26,191 nucleotides of DNA from an uncultured Chloroflexia bacterium. GTDB taxonomy: Bacteria > Chloroflexota > Dehalococcoidia > DSTF01 > JALHUB01. The stretch is from NCBI GenBank assembly GCA_963726245.1, contig CAVSBT010000014.1, positions 1 to 26,191 of the forward strand. Direction: 5' to 3'. Shown one piece after another: positions 5,805 through 26,191 of this stretch (its first letter is position 1; each line of letters starts with the position of its first letter). A program made the position numbers and the translations under genes. The notes under the pieces were generated by a model. It searched no databases and had not been told where the DNA came from. It worked only from the letters and a program-made list of their open reading frames with translations.

Positions 5805-5826
5805 ATCGCCCTCTGGACCCCATATG

Positions 5827-7684: not shown

Positions 7685-10081
7685 ATGACAACGAGCACCC
7701 CGCAGGCCTCCGCCGCCATCTGGTCGCCGTCCCCCTCGCTTTCGCCGCGCGTCCGTCGCCTTCGGGAGGAGTTCTTCTCCTTCGCGGCCCGCGACCACTT
7801 CCGCAACGAGGTCCGCCCCTACGGCAGCGGCACCCCCTGGGACGAAGTCTGGTCTCCCTACCACTGGGGAGTCGTTCCGGAGATGTACCCCCTGTTCGAC
7901 GCCGTCAGCGACAGCCTGCTGGCGGCCGCCGAGACCGTGCCCCTGCCGGACGGCTTCTGGGCCGAGCCGCTGGTGGTCCGCCGCGCCCTCTTCTTCGGCG
8001 CGGTCGTCGAGCGCTGGCTGCCGGTGAAGATCCTGGACGGCGAACTCATCGTCGGGTCCTACTTCAACACCGCCCTCTCAAAGACTCACGCGCGGGCGGA
8101 GGCCCGCACCTGGCGGCAGGGCGTCCGCCGCTGGCGAAAGAAGGCGCGGGAGCTCAACGACACCGGCACCGGCAACTGCGGCGCCATCCCCGGCCACCTG
8201 ATCCCTAACTACCCGAAGGTGCTGCGATTGGGCTTCCGCCGCATCGCCGCCGAACTTGAGGAGATGCGGGCCCGGGAGCCCGACGCGACGAGACGCGACT
8301 TCCTGCGCGCGCTCATCACCTGCTGCGAAGCCGCCATCGCCTTTGCCGGGCGTTACGCAGACGAAGCCGACCGGCTGGCGCAGAAGGAGACGGACCCCGC
8401 GCGACGGGTCGAACTGGAGAAGATCGCCGGTATCTGCCGCCGGGTGCCGGCGGAACCGGCCGCGACCTTCCAGGAAGCGCTCCAATCGCTCTGGTTCGCT
8501 CACATGCTGGTCATGGCCGCTGAGTCCTACCCGGGGCCCGGCCTCTCGCCCGGGCGCATCGACCAGTACCTCTACCCCTACTACCAGGCGGACGTGGCGA
8601 ACGGAGGGCTCGACCGCCAACAAGCCCGGGAACTCCTCCAGTGCCTCTGGATCAAGCACAACTACGCCTACGATTATCAGGGCCGGATCGGCAACCAGGG
8701 GATCAACTCCGGCTTCGGGCAACTGATCACGCTGGGCGGCACCAACCCCGATGGCAGCGACGCCAGCAACGACCTCACCTGGCTGATACTGGACGTCATC
8801 GAGGAGATGAACCTGCTGGAGCCCAAGCCCAACGTCCGCCTCCACGAGAAGACGCCAGAGGACCTGCTGCGCCGTGTCGCCGGGCTGATCGCCCGCGCCC
8901 AGGGCTCGCCCTTCCTGCTCAACTTCGACGAGGCGTCGATCCGCGGCCTGGCCTGGCAGGGGCTCCCCAAAGAACAGCTCTGGGACTACGCGCCGGTCGG
9001 CTGCCTGGAGAACACCCTCCAGGGCTGCGACCGCTCCGGCACCGTCGACGTCAACCTGAACCTGGCCAAGGCGGTCGAACTCACGCTCAATGACGGCGTC
9101 GACATGGCGACCGGCCAGCGCCTGGGCCCGCGGACCGGCAACCCGCGCGCGTTCCCGGACTTCCCGTCGTTCCTGGCCGCCTTCAAGCGCCAACTCACGG
9201 CGCTGCTCGAACAACTCATCGACTGTAACAACCAGGCGGACGCCCTGCGCGCCGGGTTCGACCCGACGCCATACCTGAGCGTGCTGGTCGATGGCTGCGC
9301 CGAGAGCGGCCGCGACGTCACCGCCGGCGGCGCCCGCCACAACTACATCACCGTCGAGGGCATCGCCCTGGCGACGGCGGTGGACTCGCTCGTCGCCGTC
9401 AAGCACCTGGTTTACGACGAGCGGCGCGTGACCATGGACGACGTGCTGGTCGCCATCCGCGCCAACTTCGAGGGGCACGAGGACCTGCGCCGGATCCTTG
9501 CCAACAGAGCCCCGAAGTTCGGCATGGATGACCTGGAGGTAGACGGCCTGGCCCGGGAGGTGTCACGGTTCTGGACGGAGGAGGCGTTCCGTCACGTCTC
9601 ACCGGCCACCGGCCGGCGCTACCGCGGCGGCTACCTCTCCTGGAACTACTGGATTGGCTACGCGCCGCTGACCGCCGCCACGCCCGACGGGCGCCGGCGG
9701 GGGACGTTCCTCTCCAACGGCGTATGCCCGGTCACCGGTGCTGACCGCGAAGGGCCCACCGCCGCGATTCAGTCGGTGGGTCACCTGGGACTTGAGACGG
9801 CGCCCAACGGCGCATCCCACACGCTGAACCTTAGCCCATCGCTCCTGCGCGACGAAGAGCATGTTGCCAAGCTGGCGGCCCTCCTGCGGGCGTACTGCCG
9901 CGTGGGCGGCACCGCTCTCCAGGTCAACGTCCTCGACCCCGACACACTGCGGGCGGCCCAGGCGGATCCGGAAACGTACCGCAACCTGCTGGTGCGCGTG
10001 ACGGGCTACAACGCGTACTTCGTCACCCTGGGGCGCGAGCTCCAGGATGAGATCATCGCTCGCGAAGCGGGGCCGGTGTAA
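7685..10081 (+). CDS. Glycyl radical enzyme (PFL-like superfamily), substrate unknown
   Basis: 798 aa with the C-terminal Gly loop RNLLVRVTGYNAYF and a single-Cys loop APVGCLE, plus GRIDQYLYPYY, APKFG and ATPDGRRRG. Followed by an activase gene. Confidence 0.95.
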   Translation: MTTSTPQASAAIWSPSPSLSPRVRRLREEFFSFAARDHFRNEVRPYGSGTPWDEVWSPYHWGVVPEMYPLFDAVSDSLLAAAETVPLPDGFWAEPLVVRRALFFGAVVERWLPVKILDGELIVGSYFNTALSKTHARAEARTWRQGVRRWRKKARELNDTGTGNCGAIPGHLIPNYPKVLRLGFRRIAAELEEMRAREPDATRRDFLRALITCCEAAIAFAGRYADEADRLAQKETDPARRVELEKIAGICRRVPAEPAATFQEALQSLWFAHMLVMAAESYPGPGLSPGRIDQYLYPYYQADVANGGLDRQQARELLQCLWIKHNYAYDYQGRIGNQGINSGFGQLITLGGTNPDGSDASNDLTWLILDVIEEMNLLEPKPNVRLHEKTPEDLLRRVAGLIARAQGSPFLLNFDEASIRGLAWQGLPKEQLWDYAPVGCLENTLQGCDRSGTVDVNLNLAKAVELTLNDGVDMATGQRLGPRTGNPRAFPDFPSFLAAFKRQLTALLEQLIDCNNQADALRAGFDPTPYLSVLVDGCAESGRDVTAGGARHNYITVEGIALATAVDSLVAVKHLVYDERRVTMDDVLVAIRANFEGHEDLRRILANRAPKFGMDDLEVDGLAREVSRFWTEEAFRHVSPATGRRYRGGYLSWNYWIGYAPLTAATPDGRRRGTFLSNGVCPVTGADREGPTAAIQSVGHLGLETAPNGASHTLNLSPSLLRDEEHVAKLAALLRAYCRVGGTALQVNVLDPDTLRAAQADPETYRNLLVRVTGYNAYFVTLGRELQDEIIAREAGPV

Positions 10082-10097
10082 CGCCCCGGAAGGGGCG
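10082..10097 (+). other. GC hairpin with GGAA tetraloop directly after the GRE stop codon
   Basis: CGCCCC-GGAA-GGGGCG with no U-tract. The 3' arm contains the SD-like AAGGGG of the small ORF at 10102. Confidence 0.45.
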
Positions 10098-10101
10098 AAC
10101 C

Positions 10102-10215
10102 ATGTGTGACTCCAAGCACTACACGGAGACAGCGGCCTGTCGCCACGGCCGCGACGCTGGGGCGGACACCCCCAATGCTGGCGAATCCGGCGAGAAGGTG
10201 TACGAGTGGCCGTGA
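10102..10215 (+). CDS. Putative 37-aa small protein between GRE and activase
   Basis: Translated by hand: MCDSKHYTETAACRHGRDAGADTPNAGESGEKVYEWP. 29 of the 36 codons after ATG end in G/C. Its TGA overlaps an in-frame GTG of the activase gene (GTGA, 10212-10215). Confidence 0.35.
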   Translation: MCDSKHYTETAACRHGRDAGADTPNAGESGEKVYEWP

Positions 10216-11183
10216 CGCACGCCACGCGCTCGGCGAAGACAGCGGATAGCGCGGGAGCGGTCACCGGCGTCACCTTCAACGTGCAGCGCTTCAGCACCGA
10301 GGACGGCCCCGGCATCCGCACAACCGTCTTCATGAAGGGCTGCCCGCTGCGGTGCCGCTGGTGCCACAACCCAGAGGGCCTCTCGCCGCACCCGCAACTG
10401 GTCTGGTACGACGTGCGCTGCATGGGCGCCCGTGCCTGCCTGGCCGCCTGCCCGACCGGAGCCCTGGAACTGACGCCGGCGGGAATGCGCATCGACCGCG
10501 AGCGCTGCTCACCCTGCGACCTCTGCGCCGGAGCCTGTCCCAGCGGCGCCCTCGAGGTCATCGGCAGGCGATGGACGCCGAAGGAGCTCTTCGCGCTTGT
10601 GGCCAGGGACACCGTCTTCTACGAGACGTCAGGCGGAGGCGTGACGGTGTCCGGCGGCGAGCCCGCCATGCAGCCTGACTTCCTGGAGGCGTTCCTGGCG
10701 CTGTGCCACGAAGGCGGCATCGCCGCGGCCATCGACACCTGCGGCTACGCGGACTGGAGCGTTTACGAGCGCCTGCTGCCGCACGTTAGCCTGGTGCTGT
10801 TCGACCTGAAGGTGGCCGACCGGGAGCGGCACCGCGAGGCAACGGGCGTCTACCCGGAGCGCATCTTCGAGAACGCCGCCGCCATCGCAGCGCGGGGCGT
10901 GCCCATGTGGGTGCGGACGCCGGTGATCCCCGGCTACTCGGACGACGAGGAGAACATCGCGGCGCTGGCCGCGTTCATCGCCGGACGGCTGCCGACAGTC
11001 CAGCGCTGGGACCTGCTCGCCTACACGAACCTGGGGCGGCCCAAGTACCACCGCCTGGACCTGCCCTACGCGCTGGAAGACACGGACCTGCCCCTGCGGG
11101 AGCGGATGGAGCGACTGGCTGCCGTCGCTGTGCAGGGCGGCGTGCCGAACGTGACGTGGTCCGGCGCTACCCGGGACCGATGA
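10206..11183 (+). CDS. Glycyl-radical enzyme activating protein (radical SAM, with ferredoxin insert)
   Basis: QRFSTEDGPGIRTTVFMKGCPLRCRWCHNPE, a ferredoxin-like insert (CMGARACLAACP...CSPCDLCAGACP) and GGGVTVSGGEP. Start is GTG 10206 or GTG 10212. Confidence 0.95.
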   Translation: MAVTHATRSAKTADSAGAVTGVTFNVQRFSTEDGPGIRTTVFMKGCPLRCRWCHNPEGLSPHPQLVWYDVRCMGARACLAACPTGALELTPAGMRIDRERCSPCDLCAGACPSGALEVIGRRWTPKELFALVARDTVFYETSGGGVTVSGGEPAMQPDFLEAFLALCHEGGIAAAIDTCGYADWSVYERLLPHVSLVLFDLKVADRERHREATGVYPERIFENAAAIAARGVPMWVRTPVIPGYSDDEENIAALAAFIAGRLPTVQRWDLLAYTNLGRPKYHRLDLPYALEDTDLPLRERMERLAAVAVQGGVPNVTWSGATRDR

Positions 11184-11184
11184 C

Positions 11185-12021
11185 ATGACCACCCTCGACC
11201 TCTCCGAGGCCAAACTTGACGCGGGAGCCGTCGGCGTACTCTCAGAGCTGCGCGCGCCCAAGTTCCTGGCCACCCGCGACGCCGACGGAGTCCCGAACGT
11301 CGTGCCGGTGCTCTCCCTCGAGGCCTTCGACGAGCGGACCATCGTCTTTGGGGAGATGATGATCTGGAAGACGCGCCGGAACCTGGAGGCGGACCCGCGG
11401 GTGTCAATCCTGGTCCTCTCGCCCGACTTGCGGGCCTGGACGGTCCGCGGCCGGTTCGTGGAGTTCCGGAGCAGCGGCCCCTACTTCGACCACGTCGCAT
11501 CCAACGAGAGCGCCCGCTACAACCCTTACGGCAGCTACCGGAGCGCCGGGGTCATCGAGGTGCTGGGAGTATCCCGCACCTCGCAGTTCTCGCAGCGCGG
11601 CCTGCTCCTGGACACCGCCCGCTGCCGCCTGCTGGCGCGCGGCCTCTCGCGCGACGGCCGGACGCTGCCGGCCATGCCGCTTCAGGTGGAGGAGAAGTTC
11701 GGCCGGCTGAAGGCGGCCAAGGCGCTGGCCATCGTCGATGCTTCCGGTCACCCCGACTGCCTCCCGGCCCTGCCGCTGACGACGGCGGGACGCGGACGCC
11801 TGGTGTTCGGCGGCGCCACCGCCCGCGACCTGGCCGGACTCGCGCCCGGCACACCCATCGCCGCCGCCGTCCTCACCCTGGAACCGGTCGCCTACCAGGT
11901 GAAGGGCACGTTCGCCGGCCTGCGCCGCAGCCTGGGGCAGGCGCTCGGCGTCATCGACGTGCGGGAGGCGTATAGCGCCTGCCCGCCGCTGCCGGGCCAC
12001 CCGCTGCCGATGAAGCCCTGA
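11185..12021 (+). CDS. Pyridoxamine 5'-phosphate oxidase-like protein with two FMN-binding split-barrel repeats
   Basis: KFLATRDADGVPNVVP...KTRRNLEADPRVSIL...VRG, then a second degenerate copy KALAIVDASGHPDCLP...YQVKG. Starts 1 bp after the activase stop codon. Confidence 0.8.
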   Translation: MTTLDLSEAKLDAGAVGVLSELRAPKFLATRDADGVPNVVPVLSLEAFDERTIVFGEMMIWKTRRNLEADPRVSILVLSPDLRAWTVRGRFVEFRSSGPYFDHVASNESARYNPYGSYRSAGVIEVLGVSRTSQFSQRGLLLDTARCRLLARGLSRDGRTLPAMPLQVEEKFGRLKAAKALAIVDASGHPDCLPALPLTTAGRGRLVFGGATARDLAGLAPGTPIAAAVLTLEPVAYQVKGTFAGLRRSLGQALGVIDVREAYSACPPLPGHPLPMKP

Positions 12022-12154
12022 AGACCGCAGACGCCGCCTGGTCCGTTTCCGCCCCACGTACTTCTATGGCGGTGTAGCGAAGAAAGGGCTACACTGGGGC
12101 CGATCCTGCGCGGAGCGAGGGGCAGGTCTTTGAGTACCACAGGCAAGGGGGCGT

Positions 12155-13477
12155 ATGACAATGCTACCACGATTCCGACGCGGATTCCTTCTCGCAGCCA
12201 TTCTTCTGGCCGGTCTCCTCCTGTTGAGTTGCGGTGGGGGGGACGAGGCGGGCAGCAAGACGCCCGCGGCAACACAGCCAGCAGGCGCGGGTACCCCAGG
12301 CACCGAGAAAGTGCCGGGGGTAACGGACACTGAGATCCTGCTCGGCAGCCATTTCGCTTTGAGCCAGTCGCCGGCGGCCGCCTACGCGCCCATCCTCGAC
12401 GGCTATCGCGCCTACTTCGACTACGTCAATTCCAAGGGGGGTGTCTACGGGCGCAAGATCAAGCTTCTGGTAGGCGATGACCACTACAACCCGGCGGACA
12501 CCCTGGAGGTCGTACGCAAGCTGGTGGAGCAGGAAGGCATCTTCGCCATGATCGGCTGCCTGGGCGAGTCCACCCATACCACCGTCTGGAAGTACCTGGA
12601 GGAGCAGGGCATCCCTGACCTCTTCCAGACCAGCGGCATCGTCAAATGGACGGACCCGGTGGCGCACACCCGCTTCGGCGGTAACCCCGACTACAGTACC
12701 GAGGGGAAGATACTCGGCAAGTATATTGCCGAGCACTACAACGGGAAGAAGCTGGGCCTGCTGCTCCAGAACGACGAGATCGGGGTGGACGGCGAGGCGG
12801 GCATTCGCGCTGGCCTGGAAGGCAGCGACGTCGAGATCGTGGCCCGCGAGACCTTCGAGACTACCCAGTGGGACGTCACCGCCCAGACGCAGCGGCTTAA
12901 GAACGCCAACCCGGACGTCGTCGCCGCCTACGCCATCCCGCCGCCCGCCGCCAGCATGGTCAAGGTGGCGCGCGAGGTCCTGAACTGGGATGTGCCCTTC
13001 GTGACCACCGGCGTGGTCGTCTCCGACATCTTCGGGCAGCTCGCCGGCGTTCAGAACGCGGAGGGCATGATCAGCGTAACCTTCGGCAAGCAGCTTTTCC
13101 AAACGGACGACCCCGCGATCCAACTGCACCTCCAGATCATGAAGGACTTCGGCCAGGGCGTTCCGCCGAGCAACTTCACCCTCTACGGGCAGGCCATGGC
13201 CGAGATCATGGTGAAGGGGCTGGAGAACGCGGGCCCTGACCTGACACGAGAGAGCTTGATCAGTGGCCTCGAGTCCATCCGCGACTGGTGTTGCACCGCA
13301 TGCATGGTGCCTGTGAACATGAGCCCCACTGACCACCGTCCCATGGAGATGGAATTCTACGTCACGATGCACAACGGCAACTGGGTGCCGTTCGGCGAGC
13401 CGATCAGTTTCGAATCCACGCCGGGCAAAGCCATAGGCTGCAAGGGCATGGGCGAGCCCGTCTACGCCGGCGAATGA
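12155..13477 (+). CDS. ABC transporter substrate-binding lipoprotein (LivJ/branched-chain amino acid-like family)
   Basis: Signal peptide with lipobox LLLSC, PGVTDTEILLG, VNSKGGVYGRKIKLLVGDDHYNP and QRLKNANPD. No permease or ATPase genes are adjacent. Confidence 0.9.
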   Translation: MTMLPRFRRGFLLAAILLAGLLLLSCGGGDEAGSKTPAATQPAGAGTPGTEKVPGVTDTEILLGSHFALSQSPAAAYAPILDGYRAYFDYVNSKGGVYGRKIKLLVGDDHYNPADTLEVVRKLVEQEGIFAMIGCLGESTHTTVWKYLEEQGIPDLFQTSGIVKWTDPVAHTRFGGNPDYSTEGKILGKYIAEHYNGKKLGLLLQNDEIGVDGEAGIRAGLEGSDVEIVARETFETTQWDVTAQTQRLKNANPDVVAAYAIPPPAASMVKVAREVLNWDVPFVTTGVVVSDIFGQLAGVQNAEGMISVTFGKQLFQTDDPAIQLHLQIMKDFGQGVPPSNFTLYGQAMAEIMVKGLENAGPDLTRESLISGLESIRDWCCTACMVPVNMSPTDHRPMEMEFYVTMHNGNWVPFGEPISFESTPGKAIGCKGMGEPVYAGE

Positions 13478-13641: not shown

Positions 13642-14202
13642 CTACGGGCCGAAGACTGCCTTCACTTGTAGCTTCTGGGCCGACTGCACAGCGTCGTTCG
13701 TCGGGACCGTGATCTCGAACAGGTGAGGGCCGTCCATCCCCGTCATCATGTGCGTCTCGAAGGAAAGCGTCGTCTTCTCGCCTGGCTTGACTGTCGTGGA
13801 ACCCACGACCGGCTGGAATGGTCAACAACCCTCCAGCACCTTCACGCTGGGCTCGGAGATGACCAGCGGCGCGTCGCCGACGTTCTGGAGGTCGAATGAG
13901 TGGGAGACGTTCGTCATCAGCGGGACCTGGCCAAGGTCCACCTCTGTCGTGGGAAGGTAGAGGCGCGCTCCACCCGTGTACGGCTGAGCGGCGCTGGCGG
14001 CAGATGGGGTGACGGGTGTTGTGTCAGGAGCCACGGCCGACTGTTGATCGCTGCCCCCGCGACTGCGAACGAGGTCCGCAGTCAGGAAGACGGCGATGCC
14101 GACGATTGCGGCCAGCACTCCCCAGCCCACGATCTTGAGGGGCGTGATCCGGCGATGCCCGCCGCTCTTGATCTGCTTGCGTTTCTTATGTTTTGGGTTC
14201 AC
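13642..14202 (-). CDS. Membrane-anchored DUF1573-like Ig-fold protein, probable selenoprotein (Cys-Sec motif, in-frame TGA at 13822-13824)
   Basis: The ORF track stops at ...KVLEGC-TGA, but the frame continues PFQPVVGSTTVKPGEKTTLSFETHMMTGMDGPHLFEITVPTNDAVQSAQKLQVKAVFGP to TAG at 13642, giving 186 aa. This completes the DLG.V...F...NVGDAPL.I...C...PG...TND Ig-like pattern. A SECIS-like hairpin follows the TGA. Confidence 0.8.
13793..13809 (-). promoter_or_regulatory. Putative bacterial SECIS element
   Basis: On the mRNA: UGA, 12 nt, then GUCGUGG-GUU-CCACGAC. This is a perfect 7-bp stem with G at the start of the apical loop, a geometry similar to the E. coli fdhF SECIS. Confidence 0.65.
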
Positions 14203-14283
14203 AGTTCACCCCCTTGTGTCCACCGCCTCGACAAGCCCGCTGCCTCCCGCGCCTTCTTAGAAGCGCCCCGAGTCAGGCCGCCC

Positions 14284-14781
14284 CTATCCTTCGGTGATGG
14301 GCGGAGTGTCCGTCGACGGCCCGTACTTGCTGTACTTGGCGTCGACGTTCTGCCGGATGTCCTTTGCACTCAGTCCCTGGCCTTTCAGAGTCATTACATC
14401 GGCGGCTATGTCCACGCAGGTTCGACAGCCCGAGGCATGGCTCTCGTAGGTTCCGTCCGGCTTAATGAAGCACTCCTTCAAATTGTGGTGCGCGGTGGCG
14501 TGCATGCCGCAGCCGCAATAGCAGGGCATCTTCGTGAAGAGATCCTCGTTGGCGACGGCAGCCTGGTATCCAGCCAGCGTCGCGCTTGACGTGTGAGCGA
14601 ACGCCGGCAATTCGCCGCCCGCCTGCGCGGCTACGCTCTCCGACGCGGGATCGCCGCCCCGCGCGGTGACCCACAGGAAAGCGCCGCCCGCGATGAGGGC
14701 GATCACCACAACCAAAGCAGCCCCGCGAATGCCGTCACGCCGCCACGCTCTCGTGCTCCCCGCAGTTTCTCTCGATTTCAT
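14284..14781 (-). CDS. PCYCGC motif-containing membrane-anchored protein
   Basis: N-terminal TM helix, MPCYCGCGMHATAHHNLKECF and HASGCRTCVDIA. AAAGGAG SD precedes ATG 14781 (165 aa); the longer ORF start overlaps the upstream gene. Confidence 0.85.
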   Translation of the reverse strand: MKSRETAGSTRAWRRDGIRGAALVVVIALIAGGAFLWVTARGGDPASESVAAQAGGELPAFAHTSSATLAGYQAAVANEDLFTKMPCYCGCGMHATAHHNLKECFIKPDGTYESHASGCRTCVDIAADVMTLKGQGLSAKDIRQNVDAKYSKYGPSTDTPPITEG

Positions 14782-14876
14782 GCTTGTCGCTCCTTTTGCT
14801 GTGTGCCTCAGAACGGGGTTGGAATCGTTCAACGGATCAGAAGTATCCACCTCTAGTCGCCGAGGAGTCGCGTTGC

Positions 14877-15263
14877 CTAGGCCCTCGGCTCCACAATCAG
14901 CTCTCCCCACATCTGGTGATGTCCATCCCCGCAGACATTGGTGCACGTGAATCCAAACGTGCCCGGCTTATCCGCGACGAACTCGACATCCGTGTATTTC
15001 CCTGGATATACGGCCTCCACAGCGACGTCGTAGCCTTCAAGGAGAAAGCCGTGTACCACGTCATCGCTGGTGAGACGCAGATGAACGACGTCACCCTCGG
15101 TCACGCGAATTGTCTGTGGATTCCAAGTGCTATTGGCGCCGACGAGCGTGAATTCTTGGTCCGACTGGGTCCGCAGAACGCGCTGATAGCCGAGCGTGGC
15201 CGCCGGCATGCCCAGCAGGACGAGCACAACCAGCCCAATAGCAAGCTTCTCGAGGGTGGACAT
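14877..15263 (-). CDS. Cupredoxin with CuA-type motif (cytochrome c oxidase subunit II C-terminal-like domain)
   Basis: N-terminal TM helix, LTSDDVVHGF and CTNVCGDGHHQM (H...CxxxCxxxHxxM). Confidence 0.88.
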   Translation of the reverse strand: MSTLEKLAIGLVVLVLLGMPAATLGYQRVLRTQSDQEFTLVGANSTWNPQTIRVTEGDVVHLRLTSDDVVHGFLLEGYDVAVEAVYPGKYTDVEFVADKPGTFGFTCTNVCGDGHHQMWGELIVEPRA

Positions 15264-15265
15264 CG

Positions 15266-15646
15266 TCAGACCTCACCGTTTGAATTCGATAGCTCCCAGT
15301 AGTCTGACCCCATTGGTAGCTTCGTGCCCCTGTCTTCCAGGACGCCGGGATGAGGTATGAGGCCAAAGGCGGCACGCATTTCCGCTGCGCCGCCCACGTA
15401 CAAGGCGTTGCACTGGAAGAGCAAGCTCTCGACATCGCCGTGAATCCGGCTCGGAGCCAGAACGCTCAAGAGGTGAACGTGCTCGCGGCTATGGCCGTTG
15501 TGACCGTTCACGCTCGTGCAAACGCCGATGAGATCGCGCCGGACCTTGAGCGCCTCCAACCGAGCGACCGCTGCATCCACCTGCTCATGGTCTGCGAAGG
15601 CGGCCACAACGATGGGCAACTTCCTTCCTGGCTGGACCACCGACAT
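15266..15646 (-). CDS. Hypothetical protein with His-rich loop
   Basis: Fills the gap in a tightly packed operon. GAGG SD lies 6 nt before ATG 15646. Contains CTSVNGHNGHSREHVH. Confidence 0.65.
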   Translation of the reverse strand: MSVVQPGRKLPIVVAAFADHEQVDAAVARLEALKVRRDLIGVCTSVNGHNGHSREHVHLLSVLAPSRIHGDVESLLFQCNALYVGGAAEMRAAFGLIPHPGVLEDRGTKLPMGSDYWELSNSNGEV

Positions 15647-15665
15647 CATTCCCCTCAAATCACAG

Positions 15666-17099
15666 TCAACCGATGAACAACCACAAGAGGATCACCGTAA
15701 TCAGGGCCAGCAGCCCGGCGACCGGGACCACTGACCGCCGTGCCCCCGCCGCGTCGCCGATGTACTCACTCGAAATCTGATGAGCCAGACGCACCGACAT
15801 CGCCAGCCCCACCGTCAGGATTGGCACCTGGATGTAGGGAAGAAGTTGAGGCAGATAGGGTCTCCAGGCGTAGCCGGCGGTGCCAAACAGGTTCCACCCC
15901 CATCCGAAGGGGTCCGACAGCACCGGCAGGATGTCCGAAGCATTGGCGAACAGGAAGTCGAGGCTGAAGGCAACCCAGGCTGCCAGGCCCAGCGGCACGG
16001 CCGTGTAGGCAAAGGCGACGAACAGGCGGCGGGCAGGCACGTCGCTCGCCCTCGACAGCGCTTTCCCCAGCCAGCTGACGGCGAAGAACGCTCCCGGTGC
16101 GAGCACCAACATGGAGACCATCAGCAAGCCCGCGTAACCTATGAACGCCGGCAACTGACCGCTGCCCAGGTTCGCCCAGCTCCTCAGCCAGCCCCAGGGC
16201 CCGGCCATGATCGCTGTGTACAAGAGAGCGGAGGTCAGCAGGATCAACGCTCTGTAAGCTTCGTCCGCGTGCCGCCGTGGCACCGCCAGGTCGACCCCAA
16301 ACGGCCGCAGGCTGAGGGCGATATTCCCCTTAGGACACGTCTTGAGGCACTCCATGCACATGCCGCAATAGGCATTGCGATCCATGGTGCCGGGGTACTC
16401 CATCCAGGGACAGCCAAAGCCGGCCGCAGACCCTTTGATGCACTCTTTCGCCGCGGGGCCGCAGTGAACCAAGCACAGCTCGGGGTCAACGGCCCGCAGC
16501 TCCAGAGGCGCCGCAGCCGAATACTGGCCAACGAATCCGCCGACAGGGCAGACGTAGCGGCAGAAGGCTCGTCGCTTGAAGACCAGGTAAAGGCACAGCG
16601 CGAGGAGTGTGAGCGCGAGGAGAAGGGCACCCGTCACGAACGGTCGCGTGAGTATGACGGCGCTGAAGAGGGCCATGACGACCAGGACGGAGTTCTGCAG
16701 CCAGAGGCCACGGATGGCCTCCGGCCACTCGAGTCCAAGTGTCAGGGGCCGCCGGCGGCCCGGAATCAAGATGGCCCGCCTCTGCACCCATTCGCCGACG
16801 GCCGCAACGGGGCACACGGCGCACCAGGTCCGCGCTCCCAACGGCACGAGGATCAGGATCAGCGCCCCCCACCAGACGATCCAGGCAAAGACTATCGAGA
16901 AGTTGGCGCTGCCGACCGGCGTTCCGAAGAGACCGGTGAGGATCACCAGCACGAACACAGAGAGCACCGGCAGCACGACAATGAACGGGAACAAGCGGTG
17001 GGTGAGGACCAGGCGCACGGGTTCACACCGCAACACGTTGATGCGCTTACTGTCCCCGCCCGCGCCGGCTGTTCGTGGCTCGACGGCGGTTCTAAGCAT
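15666..17099 (-). CDS. Polytopic 4Fe-4S binding membrane protein (NapH/NosR C-terminal/CcoG-FixG-like)
   Basis: Many TM segments with RTWCAVCP, AFCRYVCPVG, CLVHC...ECIKG...GCP and YCGMCMECLKTCP. Likely start is ATG 17099, overlapping the upstream stop codon (alternative 17132). Confidence 0.88.
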   Translation of the reverse strand: MLRTAVEPRTAGAGGDSKRINVLRCEPVRLVLTHRLFPFIVVLPVLSVFVLVILTGLFGTPVGSANFSIVFAWIVWWGALILILVPLGARTWCAVCPVAAVGEWVQRRAILIPGRRRPLTLGLEWPEAIRGLWLQNSVLVVMALFSAVILTRPFVTGALLLALTLLALCLYLVFKRRAFCRYVCPVGGFVGQYSAAAPLELRAVDPELCLVHCGPAAKECIKGSAAGFGCPWMEYPGTMDRNAYCGMCMECLKTCPKGNIALSLRPFGVDLAVPRRHADEAYRALILLTSALLYTAIMAGPWGWLRSWANLGSGQLPAFIGYAGLLMVSMLVLAPGAFFAVSWLGKALSRASDVPARRLFVAFAYTAVPLGLAAWVAFSLDFLFANASDILPVLSDPFGWGWNLFGTAGYAWRPYLPQLLPYIQVPILTVGLAMSVRLAHQISSEYIGDAAGARRSVVPVAGLLALITVILLWLFIG

Positions 17100-17613
17100 G
17101 GGCGGCGCCTGTTCCTTTCCGCAGCCAGCCATACGCCGTGGCCCCGACGGCTACCACAAGCGTAGCTATGACGGCTCCGAGAAACGGGCTGTTGGGCTCG
17201 ACGGAGAGCAACCCGACCATGAAGGGATGCAGGTCGCCGCAGGGCACGGAGCAGCGGAGGCGAAATGTGCCCGGTCTATCGGCCACGAAATCCAGGACAG
17301 ACGTCTTGCCGGGCGCCGCCTCCGTCTTGAGACCGTAGCCGTCCACGTAGACGCCGTGGCTCACGTCCTGCGGCGCAAGGCGTAGGATTACGTGGTCACC
17401 CTTATTGACCTCTATTCTCTCGGGGGAGTAAGCGAATCTGCTCGCTTCAAGGGTGATCTCACGCGTCTCCGGCTTGCCGGCTGGAAAGGGTATGAAGCTG
17501 CCCGCAGCCACCGCCACCACGGATAGACCCGCGACAGCGCCCACTGCCAGCCACCCCCAATAGCGGAACAGCCCTCGCTTCAGTCTCTTGCCTATTTCGG
17601 CTTCTCCCGACAT
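17092..17613 (-). CDS. Membrane-bound cupredoxin with CuA-type motif (N- and C-terminal TM helices)
   Basis: FAYSPERIEVNKGD, DVSHGVYVDGY and RCSVPCGDLHPFM, with hydrophobic helices at both ends. Confidence 0.88.
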   Translation of the reverse strand: MSGEAEIGKRLKRGLFRYWGWLAVGAVAGLSVVAVAAGSFIPFPAGKPETREITLEASRFAYSPERIEVNKGDHVILRLAPQDVSHGVYVDGYGLKTEAAPGKTSVLDFVADRPGTFRLRCSVPCGDLHPFMVGLLSVEPNSPFLGAVIATLVVAVGATAYGWLRKGTGAAHA

Positions 17614-17691
17614 AAACCCATACCCTATGTGGCTCTCCCTGTAGTCGTAATTGAAAGCGCGAGCAGTTCGCCGCGCTCGATTCAGTTGTCC

Positions 17692-18693
17692 CTAGGGTGC
17701 GCAGCCGCTGGCCTTGCCTCCGCCCTGGCTGCCCGTGCCAAGCGCTCCCTGCTGCTGGAGCTGCGCGTAAACCTGCTTGAAGCCGCTGGAGCTCGAGTAG
17801 GCCTTGCCCATCAGCAGGCGCGCGTCGACGTGCTCCCACCCTTGGCCTTGACCCTGGAAGTACTGGGCCAGGTACTGGTACTGGGTGGGGAACCAGAACG
17901 GGCTGATCCTCTTCAGGGCCAGGAAGATGTCGTCGGCGCTGGCCCCTTGAGATGCCATGAGCTCCGCGAGGCCCAGAGCAGCCATTCCGTGGTTGCAGTC
18001 CGGAAAAGCGGTCATGTTGCCGCAGCACGGCCTCCAGGAGTTGGAGGCGACCTCTTCAACCACAGCCTGTTGTTCGGGGGTCAAGGGAATAAGGTCCAAC
18101 GCCGCAAGGTACTGGGGCCCGGGCTTCGCCCCGATGGTCCAGCCGCCGGTGCTGGCGTAGTTGGCTGCTTGCGCTGGGCCGCCCTGAGCTATGGGGCCCT
18201 GGGTAAGGATGGCGTTCTTGCTGGCAAGCCCCACGGCCCACAGCACGTCCAGCGCGAAGTAGGCGTTGCTGGCATCGATGCGGATGGGTTCGTCGGAGCC
18301 GTCAGTCAGCACCTTCACCTGATCAGGGGTGAGGGGCGCGCCGGCGCTCTGGGCGGCAAGCTTGAGCTTCTCCGGATCGATGACACCCGCTTGCACGAGC
18401 CGTGCGGGCACGTCTCCCCAGCGGACATCGAGCTCGACGCCATCCGCAGGGAAGAGCGCCGCGGACAGCTTGTCGGGCTGGTCGGGCGAGACGGCGGTTG
18501 AGCTTCCCTGGAATCTGCCGTGGCTGAACCATCCCCCATAGAAGAGGAGACCGGCGGCCAAGCCGGCGCCCATCAGTCCGAGCCAGGTCTTTCGCAAGCC
18601 GTGACGACGTTCTGGCGCAGTCTGTGCCGGCGGCTCAGCCTCTTCCCGCTCGTCTTCCCAGTTCTCTTGATTGTCTTCGGTCATATCCGACAT
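17692..18693 (-). CDS. Hypothetical membrane-anchored protein with PCC...CNHGM motif
   Basis: GGGGAGG SD before ATG 18693 (333 aa). Acidic N-terminus, one TM helix, YASTGGWTIG, WRPCCGNMTAFPDCNHGMAALG and C-terminal SGCAP. Confidence 0.8.
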   Translation of the reverse strand: MSDMTEDNQENWEDEREEAEPPAQTAPERRHGLRKTWLGLMGAGLAAGLLFYGGWFSHGRFQGSSTAVSPDQPDKLSAALFPADGVELDVRWGDVPARLVQAGVIDPEKLKLAAQSAGAPLTPDQVKVLTDGSDEPIRIDASNAYFALDVLWAVGLASKNAILTQGPIAQGGPAQAANYASTGGWTIGAKPGPQYLAALDLIPLTPEQQAVVEEVASNSWRPCCGNMTAFPDCNHGMAALGLAELMASQGASADDIFLALKRISPFWFPTQYQYLAQYFQGQGQGWEHVDARLLMGKAYSSSSGFKQVYAQLQQQGALGTGSQGGGKASGCAP

Positions 18694-18712
18694 GGCAGAC
18701 CTCCCCTGATGA

Positions 18713-18769
18713 TCACCATTCGCCTGTGACATGAGGCGGCTCACAGATGTGGACTGGGAGGACTTCCAT
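18713..18769 (-). CDS. Possible 18-aa leader peptide MEVLPVHICEPPHVTGEW
   Basis: GGAGAAGGA directly upstream of ATG 18769. Its TGA lies 19 nt before the start of the first operon gene. Confidence 0.3.
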   Translation of the reverse strand: MEVLPVHICEPPHVTGEW

Positions 18770-18927
18770 GTCCTTCTCCGCGCCTTCGAATCCCGCCGCG
18801 GTGGCGCCGCGCATCTACGGCCCCGAGCGCTTCTTCTCAAGCCCCCTGTAAGGTCTTCTTGGCTTCAAGGCCCTGACGCGGGCCGTTCTGACGGGGAGTG
18901 GCACAAATATCACCATCGTCAGAACTT

Positions 18928-18984
18928 GTTGATAAATATGCTCAACTTAGTCGCCATACTGCTCCCTGCCGCTCGTTTTGTCAA
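18928..18984 (-). promoter_or_regulatory. Sigma70-like promoter with downstream inverted repeat (candidate operator) for the copper-motif operon
   Basis: Minus strand TTGACA(18984-18979)-17 bp-CAGTAT(18961-18956), then GTTGA-N9-TCAAC (18928-18946) in an AT-rich patch. Confidence 0.5.
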
Positions 18985-19472: not shown

Positions 19473-19964
19473 CTAGCTTTGGCCGGCTACCTTCTTGGGA
19501 GCGGCGCGGCCATAGACATCGAGAAGCTGGAGTCGCGTTGCCTGAAACCGCTCCTCCATGACCTGGGCAGCACGCCTCATGAGTTGGAAGCCGAGGTCGT
19601 GGTCGCTCTCGCTCCTTTCGCGGAGGCATCTCCCATCGAGCGCGATAGCCCGTGTCAACTCCACCGCCCGAGCGTCGAAATGCCAGCGGTACGGCGGCAT
19701 CATCCACGACCACCCCAGAACGTCACCCTCTCTAAGGCTCTGGATGATGACAGGACCGCGCTCAGACGATGATATCTCCACTGCCACTCGACCTTCGCGA
19801 ATGAGGTAGAAGTGGTTGGCCTCTTCACCCTCCCGAAATATGACCTCACCGGCGTCGAAACGCACGTTGGACGCACAGTCGACGAACAGTTCACGGTAGG
19901 GCTCTTCCATCCCCTTGAAGAAAGGATGCGCTGCCAGGATACGTTCAAGGTTCTCTATGGCCAT
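19473..19964 (-). CDS. Stand-alone cyclic nucleotide-binding (Crp/Fnr N-terminal-like) domain protein
   Basis: 163 aa with IFREGEEANHFYLIREGRVAV and GDVLGWSWMMPPYRWHFDARA. No C-terminal HTH domain. Confidence 0.9.
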   Translation of the reverse strand: MAIENLERILAAHPFFKGMEEPYRELFVDCASNVRFDAGEVIFREGEEANHFYLIREGRVAVEISSSERGPVIIQSLREGDVLGWSWMMPPYRWHFDARAVELTRAIALDGRCLRERSESDHDLGFQLMRRAAQVMEERFQATRLQLLDVYGRAAPKKVAGQS

Positions 19965-20076
19965 CGGTTCCTGATCCTTTCCGTCAGCTCCTATGTTCCC
20001 TTTGGCCCATTGCCCTGGCCTCTTACCCGATACAAGGCCGCTCCTTGAGGACGCCTAGGCCTTCCGCCGGGTCACG

Positions 20077-20556
20077 CTAGGCGCTTTCAACAGGAGCATG
20101 GACACCAACGGCCGCTAGCTCGTCGACGATCCTGTCCGCAGCAGCCGGGAGAGCCTCCTCCACCTCCGCTGTGCACTGCTCGCCGAATGTATACGGGTCC
20201 TTGACAGCGACCACATAGATGAGGATCTCCTGCGGCAGCGGCAAGGAGAGCCGGCGGGCCAGCTCGAGGGCCAGATGCAGGTTAACGCCATGGCTCAGCC
20301 AGGCGCAACCCCCTTCCAACTCCTCTTCTCGCAGCCGGCGCACCTGGCCGGCAGCACTCCCGTCACAGATGCTGTCGATGATGACGCCCCGGTCGTAGTG
20401 AGCCAGGAGCTGAATGGTCTTGAGGCCGGCAATCGCCGCCTCAACCAGGTCTGCCTCGGGATCGTCGAGCAGTTCATGAACGCGACGCGCCACCGAGAGG
20501 CCGGTGGCGTCGTCGGAGAGGATGGGATTGCCCAGTCCCAGGATCAGTGTTTTCGT
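20077..20556 (-). CDS. Hydrogenase maturation protease (probable ACG start)
   Basis: (M)KTLILGLGNPILSDDATG...VIIDS...SHG...FGEQCTAEVEEALP. GGAGGGG SD lies 6 nt before ACG at 20556; the nearest ATG/GTG/TTG start in the ORF track (20661) lies deep inside mvhA. Confidence 0.85.
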   Translation of the reverse strand, partial: TKTLILGLGNPILSDDATGLSVARRVHELLDDPEADLVEAAIAGLKTIQLLAHYDRGVIIDSICDGSAAGQVRRLREEELEGGCAWLSHGVNLHLALELARRLSLPLPQEILIYVVAVKDPYTFGEQCTAEVEEALPAAADRIVDELAAVGVHAPVESA

Positions 20557-20558
20557 TC

Positions 20559-22046
20559 CTAGCCCCTCCGCAGTTGCTGAACGATTTTCCCCTGGGCGTC
20601 GTGGATGCTCACAATCAGGGGCATCTCGCCGGGCAATGAGTGGGTGGCGCAGCCGAAGCACGGGTCGTAGGCGCGGAAGGCCATCTCGATGCGGTTAAGA
20701 AGCCCCTCGGTGACGACCGTCCCCTTCTTGATCAGCCCCTGGCTGGCCTTCTTCACCGACATGGCGATGGCGCCGTAGTTGTGAGCGGTGCCGACGATGA
20801 GGTTGATCTTGCGGGCCACCCCTCTCTCGTCCGCCTGGTAATGGTGGATGAGGACACCGCGCGGCGCCTCAACCACACCTACGCCCTCGCCTGGCGTGGC
20901 GCTGGGAATGGTGCGAACGTCGGGACTGGTGATCTCCGGGTCCGTGGCCAGTTCCACCATGCGCTCGGCGGCATAGACGAGCTCGATGAGGCGGGCCCAG
21001 TGCGTCGCTAGCGTGGCGTGCACCGGCTTGCCCCCCAGAGTCGAGTACATGCGCTCGTACTCGGCCTGGGCCAGGGGGGTGGCCATCCCGTCGGCGGCGT
21101 TGAGACGGGCCAGGGGGGCCACCCGGTAGATGCCGCTGTCCTTGCCGTCAACGAGCCCCTGCCACCCCAGCTTCTTCAAGTAGGGGAACTTGAGGTAGGT
21201 CCAGGGCTCCACGTGCTCGGCGATGTGCTCCAAGTAATCCGAGGGGTCGAACTTGAGGAACTCTTTCCCGTCCGGGTCCACCACCCGCAGCATGCCGTCG
21301 TAGAAGTTCACTTTGTTGTCGGCGTCCACCAGGCCCATGTAGTAGGTCTTGTGGGTGAAGGTGTCGCTCACAATCATGTCCAGGTAGCCCTTGTTGGCCA
21401 GCACCACGTCATCGAGGATCTTGAGGGAGAGCTTGCCAAATTCCACCGCCGAACGGGCGATCGCCTCGATCTTGACCCGGTCCTCCTCGGTGATGGGCTT
21501 GCTGACGCCGCCGGGAAGGCCGCAGACGGGGTGAATGTACTTCCCCCCGATCATCGCCACCACGTCGTGGCAGAGCTCGAGGTGCTTGAGCACCTCGCCT
21601 CCAATCTCCAGGCCCACCTTGTGCACCACGCCGATGATGTTGCGCTCGGCGGGGCTGGCGTCGGGCCCCACGACGAAGTCGGGGCCACTGAGAGCGTAGA
21701 AGTGCGTAGCGTGGTCGGCCACGAAGAACGCGCTGTACAGTAGCTCTCGGAGCTTCTTGGCCGCAGGTGGGGGGTCTACCTTGAAGACGGCGTCCAGGGC
21801 CTTGGCGGAGGCCATGTGGTGAGCCTCCGGGCACACCCCACAGATGCGCGGGGTGATGATCGCCAGGTCTTCGACCTGCCGGCCCTCGCAGAACTTCTCG
21901 AATCCTCTCAGCTCAGGTACCTGGAAGTAGGCGTTCTCCACATCCCCCTCCTTGTCGAGGAAGATGTCGATACGGCCGTGGCCTTCAAGGCGGGTGATTG
22001 GGTCTATTACTATGCGTCTTTCGGTAGGTGTGGCATCCGTACTCAT
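20559..22046 (-). CDS. mvhA: Group 3c-type [NiFe] hydrogenase large subunit
   Basis: IDPITRLEGHG, ELRGFEKF, L1 motif PRICGVC, EAPRG and L2 motif RAYDPCFGCATH followed by a 26-aa cleavable tail. Clustered with mvhD, mvhG and hdrA. Confidence 0.93.
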   Translation of the reverse strand: MSTDATPTERRIVIDPITRLEGHGRIDIFLDKEGDVENAYFQVPELRGFEKFCEGRQVEDLAIITPRICGVCPEAHHMASAKALDAVFKVDPPPAAKKLRELLYSAFFVADHATHFYALSGPDFVVGPDASPAERNIIGVVHKVGLEIGGEVLKHLELCHDVVAMIGGKYIHPVCGLPGGVSKPITEEDRVKIEAIARSAVEFGKLSLKILDDVVLANKGYLDMIVSDTFTHKTYYMGLVDADNKVNFYDGMLRVVDPDGKEFLKFDPSDYLEHIAEHVEPWTYLKFPYLKKLGWQGLVDGKDSGIYRVAPLARLNAADGMATPLAQAEYERMYSTLGGKPVHATLATHWARLIELVYAAERMVELATDPEITSPDVRTIPSATPGEGVGVVEAPRGVLIHHYQADERGVARKINLIVGTAHNYGAIAMSVKKASQGLIKKGTVVTEGLLNRIEMAFRAYDPCFGCATHSLPGEMPLIVSIHDAQGKIVQQLRRG

Positions 22047-23086
22047 GGTACCCTCTGCGTAACGACCGGCGGATCGCCCTGCGCTCTCTCCAATTCGTCC
22101 GCCGCGCCAGCAGGAGAGAGCGCTCCGTCCTTGCGGACCCTTCGCAACATGGACGCCGGCAGGCCGAAGAGATAGCAGATCCCCAAGAGATCAGGGAGGG
22201 TATCGGCGATCCGCTCGATCTCGTCCTGATCCTGGGTGTCGATGATGGAGGCCAGGGCGCTGAGCAGCTTCCCGCCCTGGTCAATCACGTTCGGCGGCGG
22301 CCCATAGCAGCCCCGGCAGGGCATGTTGACCGAGAGACAGGGTGCGCCGCAGCCGCCCCGTGTGGCCGGGCCGGCGCAGATGATGCCTTGCTCCAGCAGG
22401 CAGTGGGTAGAGTCCGCCACGATCTCGTAGGGGCGGTGGAAGCCGCGGATCCGCTTGTCCTCCCTGATGCGGGTGCAATCGTAGCACACCGTCTTGTCCG
22501 ACGCGCCCACCACTGAGCCGGGAGCGGGCAGTTGACCCTGCATCACCGCCTGCAGCACCGCCTCGGTCTGCTCCCTGACCGGCGGACAGCCCGGCACGAA
22601 GTACTCTACGGGCACCACCTGCTCCAGCGTCCGCACCGTGTCATAGAACTCCGGGAGTGTGAGCTCTCCCTCCGGGACCTGGCAACTGAGCTGGGGACGC
22701 ACGCCGTTATCGTTGGCTGTGGACGGCGTGTCATGGTAGACAAGCTCGAAGATGGATTCCCTGTCGGCGACGTTGGCCAGGCCGGGGATGCCTCCCATGT
22801 AGGCGCAGGTGCCAAAGGCGACCAACACCTTCGACTTCTCTCGTAGCATGTGGGCCATGTGCTCCTGCTCTGAGTTCCTGATCGCCCCATTGAACAGGCA
22901 GACGTCGATGCTCTTGTCCGGCAGCGCCTCCACGTCCTTGTACTTGAAGTCCATGATGCAGGGCCAGAGGACGATGTCGAAGGCCTCGGCCACGTCCAGG
23001 ATCTTGGCGTACAGGCGGACGACGGCAATCTCGCAGCCGCCGCAGCTAGCAGCCCAATACAGAGCTAGTTTCGGCTTCTGAGCCAT
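22043..23086 (-). CDS. mvhG: [NiFe] hydrogenase small subunit
   Basis: ASCGGC, FGTCA, PGCPP, VCYDC, CLLEQGIICAGPATRGGCGAPC and PCRGCYGP. Confidence 0.92.
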   Translation of the reverse strand: MAQKPKLALYWAASCGGCEIAVVRLYAKILDVAEAFDIVLWPCIMDFKYKDVEALPDKSIDVCLFNGAIRNSEQEHMAHMLREKSKVLVAFGTCAYMGGIPGLANVADRESIFELVYHDTPSTANDNGVRPQLSCQVPEGELTLPEFYDTVRTLEQVVPVEYFVPGCPPVREQTEAVLQAVMQGQLPAPGSVVGASDKTVCYDCTRIREDKRIRGFHRPYEIVADSTHCLLEQGIICAGPATRGGCGAPCLSVNMPCRGCYGPPPNVIDQGGKLLSALASIIDTQDQDEIERIADTLPDLLGICYLFGLPASMLRRVRKDGALSPAGAADELERAQGDPPVVTQRVP

Positions 23087-23106
23087 AACAACCCCCAGGC
23101 TTCGGT

Positions 23107-23568
23107 CTAACCTTGCTGGCCCACTGCCAGCTTCGCATCCTTCTTCAAGGGGCCCAGCTCTTTCAGCGCTTTCGTGAAGTCTGCCACAACCTGGGCAAAC
23201 CTGGCCCCTTCAGATGCCGAAACCCATTCCAATCTCACCCTCTCGGGCTCGATCCCGAAATCACCAAGCATCTTTCTCAGCAGGTGAATCCTTCTTCGCG
23301 CCTTGTAGTTTCCTTCCATGTAGTGGCAATCACCCGGGTGGCAACCCCCGATCAGCACACCATCCACACCCCTGGCGAAGGCCTTCAAGATGAAGGTCGG
23401 ATCGACTCTGCCACTGCACATCACCCTTATCATCCTTAGGTTGGGCGGGTACTGGATTCTGGAGGTGCCGGCAAGATCGGCACCTGCATAGGTACACCAG
23501 TTGCAGGCAAAGCCGAGTATCAGGGGCTCAAAGCCGTTTCTGTCCATTGCCAGACCCTCTTCTCGCAT
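23107..23568 (-). CDS. mvhD: Methyl-viologen-reducing hydrogenase delta subunit ([2Fe-2S])
   Basis: FACNWCTYAGADLAG, RVMCSGRVDP, GCHPGDCHY and WVSASEG. Alternative start at ATG 23547. Confidence 0.95.
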   Translation of the reverse strand: MREEGLAMDRNGFEPLILGFACNWCTYAGADLAGTSRIQYPPNLRMIRVMCSGRVDPTFILKAFARGVDGVLIGGCHPGDCHYMEGNYKARRRIHLLRKMLGDFGIEPERVRLEWVSASEGARFAQVVADFTKALKELGPLKKDAKLAVGQQG

Positions 23569-23575
23569 GCTTTCC

Positions 23576-26189: not shown

Positions 26190-26191
26190 GG

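Follow-up and report, generated by a model that had tools for sequence, protein, structure and literature searches.

The stretch analysed here (the window, 26,191 nt from an uncultured Chloroflexia bacterium, contig CAVSBT010000014.1) carries a cassette of seven co-oriented genes on the minus strand, designated A to G (13642-18693), which is apparently an undescribed copper variant of the NapH/NosR-like electron conduits. The best reading of the cassette, which we favor with modest confidence, is an outward conduit in which electrons would pass from Fe-S clusters to one CuA centre and then to a second, with accessory proteins for copper loading. The original prediction had left open whether the genes serve as an electron conduit, in CuA assembly or in copper reduction; the conduit is now best supported, because B is fused to C and D to flavoproteins in other genomes, a complex of D and C could be modelled and one copy is nos-linked, while assembly fits only F, G and A, and copper reduction is possible. 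Inspection of the sequence and its open reading frames (ORFs) confirmed all seven frames, together with the metal-type motifs ascribed to them, the loop of D excepted.

The CuA-bearing core and its flavoprotein link

Gene B (17092-17613, minus strand, 173 amino acids) encodes a CuA cupredoxin domain between two transmembrane (TM) segments, and gene E (14877-15263, minus strand, 128 amino acids) a CuA cupredoxin with a single TM anchor. The full ligand pattern H..CxxxCxxxHxxM is present in both proteins and in their orthologues, in agreement with the CuA sites originally predicted for two products, and no further CuA motif was found in the window's own genome (G000; 82.8% complete, 6.3% contamination), whose nearest homologues with a name belong to Dehalococcoidia. 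The closest solved relative of E is the CuA domain of Thermus ba3 (E-value 1e-14). As in heme-copper oxidase subunit II the ligand set is complete, but the cassette has two copies and no subunit I beside them; no partner subunit I was found in G000 or in the 97% complete genome of a relative (G283), and with 44 and 59 bits the two cupredoxins do not reach the TIGR02866 cut-off of 147.7. To our knowledge, CuA is otherwise confined to heme-copper oxidases and N2O reductase, where electrons enter through it.

Gene C (15666-17132, likely start 17099, minus strand, 488 amino acids) encodes a polytopic NapH/NosR/CcoG-like protein with two Fe-S sites, in which 11 Cys are invariant across 69 aligned rows, so that the CxxCP, CxxxCP and ferredoxin motifs foreseen for it are borne out. 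It belongs to Fer4_5 (PF12801; 33.6 bits in two stretches, cut-off 22) and has nine hydrophobic segments, but falls short of TIGR02163 (27.8 bits against 213, E-value 1.6e-6) and PRK09477 (31.3 against 234). Fer4_5 is the only Pfam match, with neither an FMN-binding nor an Ig-like domain, and NCBIfam returned NapH models only. The second cluster motif is canonical. In the first, Cys220 and Cys231 enclose His223, which is near-invariant, and Cys224, which varies, so that this cluster is probably non-canonical, with C220, H223 or C224, C231 and C266 as its putative ligands. The model of C (pLDDT 86.8) has a helical C-terminus; for C as a whole Foldseek gave no match and VIA nothing beyond helical bundles (Z at most 9.3), which is no proof of a new fold. 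Atlas matches in this analysis were confined to clusters without names.

B and E flank C in all 26 loci with at least 3 kb on both sides, and B-C-E is the fixed core of the cassette. These loci are taken from 33 neighbourhood rows with close C homologues, which correspond to 32 loci since two rows (L207 and L208) each cover half of a single locus; three rows (L102, L104 and L185) were left out for being duplicate or fragmentary, and the loci include related genomes and are not independent. F is present in 24 of the 26, G in 19, and D and A in five each, while E carries a cytochrome c domain in 20. All seven genes recur, reordered, in two loci (L007 and L009), and B-C-D-E stands without F or G in three others (L198, L199 and L207/L208). 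The cassette is therefore conserved, with A and D as optional parts, and does not form the strict seven-gene unit first proposed, A being found mainly in copper-resistance islands. The original prediction had named two outcomes that would speak against it, namely that the genes do not co-occur elsewhere or are routinely attached to cox or nos operons; they do co-occur, and cox and nos linkage were each seen in one of the 32 loci, so that neither outcome was found.

Among the 120 best C homologues listed, 21 have B fused to C, and COX2/Cupredoxin_1 domains were found in the two that were checked. This indicates a NosR layout with CuA where NosR has FMN. With NosR/NirI/PceC and the flavinylation-linked NapH-like proteins (PF12801) the cassette thus shares an external one-electron carrier fused at the N-terminus of a polytopic Cys-Pro/4Fe-4S protein, as well as a modular association with terminal enzymes and one copy in a nos operon; it differs in the nature of the carrier (a CuA cupredoxin, not FMN), in having a second CuA(-cytochrome c) subunit and a cytoplasmic adaptor with a GltD/NfnB-like flavoprotein, and usually in having no linked terminal enzyme. 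The Fer4_5 motifs and TM layout of C resemble those of NapH/MauN/NosH (TIGR02163), but C has about 200 additional membrane residues at its C-terminus and a non-canonical first cluster, and is accompanied by neither NapG nor nap genes. CcoG/FixG likewise combine two Cys-Pro sites and two Fe-S clusters in one membrane protein within a copper context; unlike them, C lacks the Ig-like C-terminal domain and a cbb3 operon, and is fused to or paired with CuA. Passages of the literature describe NapH-like proteins as modular conduits (PMC8238504) and CcoG as reducing Cu(II) and raising copper tolerance (PMC7558416). The cassette itself is described nowhere in the literature searched, which mostly lay outside the subscription journals, nor in the available passages of PMC13068155, PMC11409646 and PMC11828985; the gene-cluster tables of PMC8238504 or the supplements of nos studies could hold the module unnamed.

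Gene D (15266-15658, minus strand, approximately 126-130 amino acids, no family) encodes a predicted cytoplasmic adaptor with an invariant PHPG and a near-invariant K-x-P-x-G motif. The His-rich loop once ascribed to it is not conserved, and the His of PHPG is the only invariant one in 18 rows. D is rare, with 16 representatives at 50% identity, three of which are fused to GltD-like flavoprotein (Fer4_20) domains, which we take to be NfnB-like as well, and one to E; two loci (L165 and L199) have the order B-C-[D-flavoprotein]-E. The modelled D-C complex places D on the ferredoxin domain of C and scores 0.66, with 0.00 for the best control. Of the reference pairs, 116 of 157 solved and two of 215 mismatched ones attain this mark, counts that hold approximately because the alignments were of our own making. 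At least 62% of the contacts are shared between model runs, partner pLDDT is at least 75, and the conserved His103, Lys113 and Pro115 of D are in contact with residues 220-249 of C. The model supports binding of D to the ferredoxin domain of C, and D can be regarded as a putative adaptor between C and a GltD/NfnB-like flavoprotein. The fusions point to such a flavoprotein as the donor rather than Hdr-Mvh, whose genes, as originally proposed for the donor role, do lie adjacent in the window, but recur beside the cassette in a single locus of the 32, L007, where a divergent csoR separates the two; Hdr-Mvh was rejected as the dedicated donor on account of this single recurrence.

The C proteins of D-bearing loci form one clade (FastTree support 0.984) of seven sequences, which are all the D-bearing ones in the tree (the window, L009, L197, L007, L198, L165 and L199); besides the window copy, the one linked to nos and those with a flavoprotein fusion are among them. 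Since the tree is midpoint-rooted and no topology test was applied, we do not read a sequence of events from it. More distant relatives of C that have no cupredoxins adjoin GltD-like genes in three loci (L184, L210 and L211) and share one ORF call with such a gene in a fourth (L214); they appear to be a separate family paired with ferredoxin-GltD flavoproteins, and L184 lies near a divergent heme-copper oxidase pair.

In the conduit reading, B, C, D and E would assemble into a single membrane complex for outward electron transfer. A cytoplasmic GltD/NfnB-type NAD(P)H/ferredoxin flavoprotein would dock via D, which sits on C's Fe-S domain, as modelled for the docking and suggested by the fusions for the donor, and the electrons would cross the membrane through C by way of the Cys-Pro sites or quinone. 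They would then reach the CuA of B, the CuA of E and, where present, the cytochrome c of E, a flow that we infer from the observed ligands and fusions. CuA is a high-potential centre (~+240 mV), whereas Fe-S clusters and NADPH lie low (~-320 mV), and it is from these potentials that the outward direction would follow. The acceptor would vary: NosZ would serve in one genome and, in Anaerolineae, probably oxidases or reductases that are linked to cytochrome c and act in trans.

Accessory genes F, G and A

Gene G (13642-14202, minus strand, 186 amino acids) encodes an anchored DUF1573/Ig-like protein with a G-C-U-P motif and the loop HMMTGMDGPH, in line with the C-U and HMM..M..H motifs of the original prediction. 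Its selenocysteine (Sec, U127) corresponds to an in-frame TGA at 13822-13824 that would be read through, and about 60 conserved residues follow it. The read-through protein is a member of DUF1573 (PF07610; 33.7 bits, cut-off 26.1) and does not reach NF041425 (30.3 bits against 100). Of 25 rows (window included, one out-of-frame row dropped), 23 have TGA at the Sec position and two have TGT. A hairpin resembling a Sec insertion sequence (SECIS) lies at 13793-13809 (minus strand), with a 7-bp stem and a GUU loop whose G stands 20 nt 3' of the UGA, as judged by a SECIS rule that we assume to apply. All 22 distinct TGA forms share such a hairpin, in which the stem measures 6-8 bp and shows compensatory pairs and the loop begins with G at +20, a conservation partly owed to that of the peptide; it is missing from one of the two Cys forms. 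Taken by itself, the folding energy is not significant (z from -0.53 to 1.17). In a count among carriers alone, all 24 examined have selA, and G000 elsewhere encodes selA, two tRNA-Sec genes, CcmF and a GltD-like gene. The aligned UGA/Cys position, the hairpin and the Sec machinery together characterize G as a predicted bacterial selenoprotein. GCUP appears to be a new Sec motif, since that of DUF1573 is listed as UGC, as in the parts consulted of two reviews. The position of GCUP beside the Met/His loop suggests a Cu(I) site.

Gene F (14284-14781, minus strand, 165 amino acids) encodes an anchored PCYCGC protein with conserved Cys and His that is related to OS_HP4. The predicted PCYCGC..HH..CxxC arrangement is upheld by membership of PF13798 (80.7 bits, cut-off 25), while NF041379 is not reached (61.3 bits against 90), and no sequence match was found in the PDB. 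G and F thus pass family cut-offs of DUF1573/OS_HP2 and PCYCGC/OS_HP4, but differ from the listed forms, G by its GCUP in place of UGC and F by having Cys only. The passages on these predicted selenoprotein families give neither function nor operon (PMC13188914, PMC9312934, PMC1976440), and no function of PCYCGC was given in the literature seen. Two loci combine these genes with a distant C and no cupredoxin: L212 (1340-3743) has G-C-F, flanked by ahbC- and ahbD-like haem genes and with a G of the Cys type, whereas the G-C pair of L216 (8591-10437) has the Sec form.

Gene A (17692-18693, minus strand, 333 amino acids) encodes a weakly anchored, probably extracytoplasmic protein with a C-terminal GC. 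Its RPCCxNxTxxPDCNHG motif is invariant in 39 of 39 aligned rows, which substantiates the PCC..CNHGM-type motif noted before, and no Pfam or NCBIfam family matches it. In the model (pLDDT 82.7) helix 40-60 has low pLDDT and is a plausible anchor; Foldseek gave no match and the best VIA hit was CcmH (Z 4.8, rmsd 3.0, 76 aligned), so that here too a new fold is unproven. The 4328 homologues of A occur in Chloroflexota, Patescibacteria and archaea, with none in 300 other genomes of the class. In the 160 loci of A (duplicates kept) the neighbours include DsbD/CcdA (80), CopA (63), cupredoxins (59), SCxCT-type DUF1573 proteins (about 46) and CsoR (38), and an island of CcdA/DsbD, DUF1573, CsoR, CopA and cupredoxins recurs in A-anchored loci of Patescibacteria and some archaea (L010-L164). 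A was seen only in loci retrieved via A itself (0 of 26 C-anchored rows). Because of this absence, and because its usual neighbours are copper-resistance genes, A appears to be a copper-island gene recruited to the cassette, and is an optional accessory, probably a Cu/thiol-binding factor.

PCuAC, Sco and TlpA load copper and reduce the thiols of CuA, and by analogy F, G (through Sec and the Met/His loop) and A would most likely supply Cu(I) and maintain the thiols of CuA in their reduced state. No PCuAC or Sco family match of F, G or A was found in Pfam, so the likeness is one of function only. The cassette would provide a first functional context for the PCYCGC, DUF1573/OS_HP2 and A families, along with the new Sec motif.

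Electron acceptors and competing explanations

A single locus, L198, points to an acceptor: in it, B-C-D-E and a further cupredoxin directly precede NosZ, a NosD-F fusion and an ABC-2 permease that is presumably NosY-like. This NosZ belongs to clade II and has a twin-arginine leader (854.6 bits, cut-off 625). In one further locus (L168) cox genes, with their own subunit II, lie about 5 kb from the cassette. A heme-copper oxidase is encoded elsewhere in 20 of 24 and four of five other carriers (24 of 29, counted among carriers alone), and is missing in G000, G283, G654, G655, G658 and G334. The system is therefore not confined to oxidase-less anaerobes. A nosZ match beyond the CuA domain was found in one of the 24 and none of the five. 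If the conduit reading is correct, a stand-alone CuA pair wired to a NapH-like protein would be a copper version of transmembrane electron transfer, next to those that rely on flavin or cytochrome, and the cassette would offer a candidate electron donor for a twin-arginine (TAT)-type clade II NosZ of Chloroflexota; it would also raise the question of how oxidase-less sediment anaerobes use high-potential copper centres.

Several observations weigh against an outward conduit. No cox1, NosZ, multicopper oxidase or NrfA was found in G000 at its 82.8% completeness, which bears out the absence of heme-copper subunit I, NosZ and multicopper oxidase originally stated; the P-type ATPase said to be absent is indeed missing from the cassette, but a CopA is encoded on another contig (C20). 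The nos linkage is limited to one locus of 32, and C is carried by none of the eight nosZ genomes among 291 of the phylum sample. Most Anaerolineae loci have neither D nor an adjacent donor, and the GltD-like gene of G000 lies on another contig (C37:135358-136775), split over two frames. Copper-resistance genes are frequent beside the cassette (CopA in 9, YHS in 13, HMA in 7 and multicopper oxidase in 5 of the 26 loci). Furthermore, F or G flank distant C homologues that have no CuA genes (L212 and L216), with which a role purely as CuA loaders fits poorly.

According to the main rival, clearly less probable in our view than the conduit, the cassette handles copper: C would be a CcoG-like cupric reductase, or the wire would end in a surface Cu(II) reductase, while the CuA domains relay or buffer copper and the Cu(I) to be imported, detoxified or delivered is bound by F, G and A. 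The Cys-Pro sites and two Fe-S clusters of C would suit this, as would the frequent position in copper islands, the CopA, CsoR and DsbD/CcdA genes around A, the divergent csoR of L007, and genomes with no terminal enzyme (G000) or no cox1 or nosZ (G283). G283 has matches to cytochrome bd and multicopper oxidase and is thus not devoid of acceptors. Against copper handling, no CsoR-type operator was found at the cassette or in 13 upstream stretches with a wide pattern, of a shape partly assumed by us, that recovers the site of the csoR-copA promoter of G000; C matches NapH models only in NCBIfam and no Ig-like domain in Pfam, and one copy stands in a nos operon. CuA and cytochrome c fusions are moreover electron carriers. 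Cu(II) is nonetheless a live candidate for the acceptor here, given how frequently copper islands harbour the cassette. A further reading, about as doubtful as copper handling, would make the cassette of oxidase-less anaerobic Dehalococcoidia a quinone-independent, NADPH-driven wire (flavin to Fe-S to CuA to CuA) serving as cell-surface reductase for Cu(II) or another high-potential acceptor in the environment, equipped with a vicinal Cys-Sec copper chaperone and a new-fold Cys/His protein. It would be a bacterial counterpart of the Fre/Steap reductases, which we take to be the eukaryotic analogues, and the invariant His of D would possibly ligate the unusual Fe-S cluster of C in trans.

An inward wire, in which an outside donor is oxidized via E and B and C passes the electrons to quinone or the cytoplasm, is unlikely. 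NapH-like modules are also described, in passages of PMC8238504, as serving oxidases such as ExaA, and E resembles an oxidase subunit II, but no dehydrogenase gene adjoins the cassette in the 32 mapped loci and NosZ needs outward flow. The inward direction would also be uphill given the potentials above. About equally unlikely is that the system exists to serve F, G and A as its actual clients, as a DsbD-like supply of reducing power for external thiol/selenol enzymes: the G-C-F and G-C groups without cupredoxins would fit, as would the thiol-redox genes near the cassette (TlpA in 7, CcdA in 5 and DsbA in 2 of 26 loci), but a CuA relay is thermodynamically unable to reduce disulfides, and B-C-D-E occurs without F or G. 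That the cassette is a chance assembly or a decayed remnant of a lost nos or cox operon is very improbable. Its distribution is patchy, with C homologues in 27 of 401 genomes of the phylum, 15 of 401 of the class (distant ones included) and three of 93 of the order, G000 being counted in each, and none found in an 89% complete congener; the frames are intact, however, the ligands invariant and the Sec codon and hairpin kept, and the cassette recurs in several families. Plasmids yielded only distant C homologues (12 records, below 34% identity).

Genomic setting of the cassette

The GC3 of the cassette (0.70-0.82) is inside the range of G000, and thus gives no compositional sign of recent transfer. 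Of the seven products, six of which were originally proposed to be TM-anchored, five pass a hydropathy threshold of 1.6; D (peak 1.09) and A (peak 1.44) do not, and A has a plausible but weak anchor. The TTGACA hexamer first taken for the promoter of the whole run is present at 18979-18984 (minus strand), but its function as a single sigma-70 promoter is unsupported, because the -10 box paired with it is weak (3 of 6 matches) and a scan found no promoter-like site (shuffle mean 1.0). The palindrome GTTGA-N9-TCAAC (18928-18946), just 3' of the hexamer, occurs twice in the genome and at none of the related cassettes, and is possibly a regulator site.

The Hdr-Mvh run (19473-26191, minus strand, co-oriented with the cassette) comprises an hdrA-like gene split into two ORFs (25251-26189 and 23576-25267), mvhD, mvhG, mvhA, a hydrogenase protease and a stand-alone cNMP-binding protein; it stops 780 nt before gene A, and the gap is spanned by none of the contigs listed, which are short. 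On the other side, the genes at 7685-13477 (plus strand) encode a glycyl radical enzyme (under every NCBIfam cut-off), an activase, a PNPOx-like protein and a branched-chain-type binding lipoprotein, and form a putative catabolic unit around the predicted glycyl radical enzyme. Further away (629-7356, minus strand) lie an HpaB/4-hydroxybutyryl-CoA dehydratase-like gene, a 1200-amino-acid CoA-activase (BcrAD and DUF2229) and a 532-amino-acid protein without family.

Elsewhere in G000, the CsoR-CopA pair stands on contig C20, away from the cassette, the split of the GltD-like gene may reflect an assembly error or a pseudogene, and a NosD-like match is weak and under its cut-off. A cytochrome bd subunit I-like N-terminus occurs in an 818-codon frame with CxxCH (C9:48980-50203), whose product is a possible partner of E. 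In two other genomes Rrf2, ThiS/MoaD, ThiF, cysteine desulfurase and CysK genes lie directly upstream of the cassette (L009:1619-5588 and L197:4636-8575), a run that may supply sulfur for Fe-S clusters or thiols, and an Rrf2-CysK pair lies near the cassette in L174.

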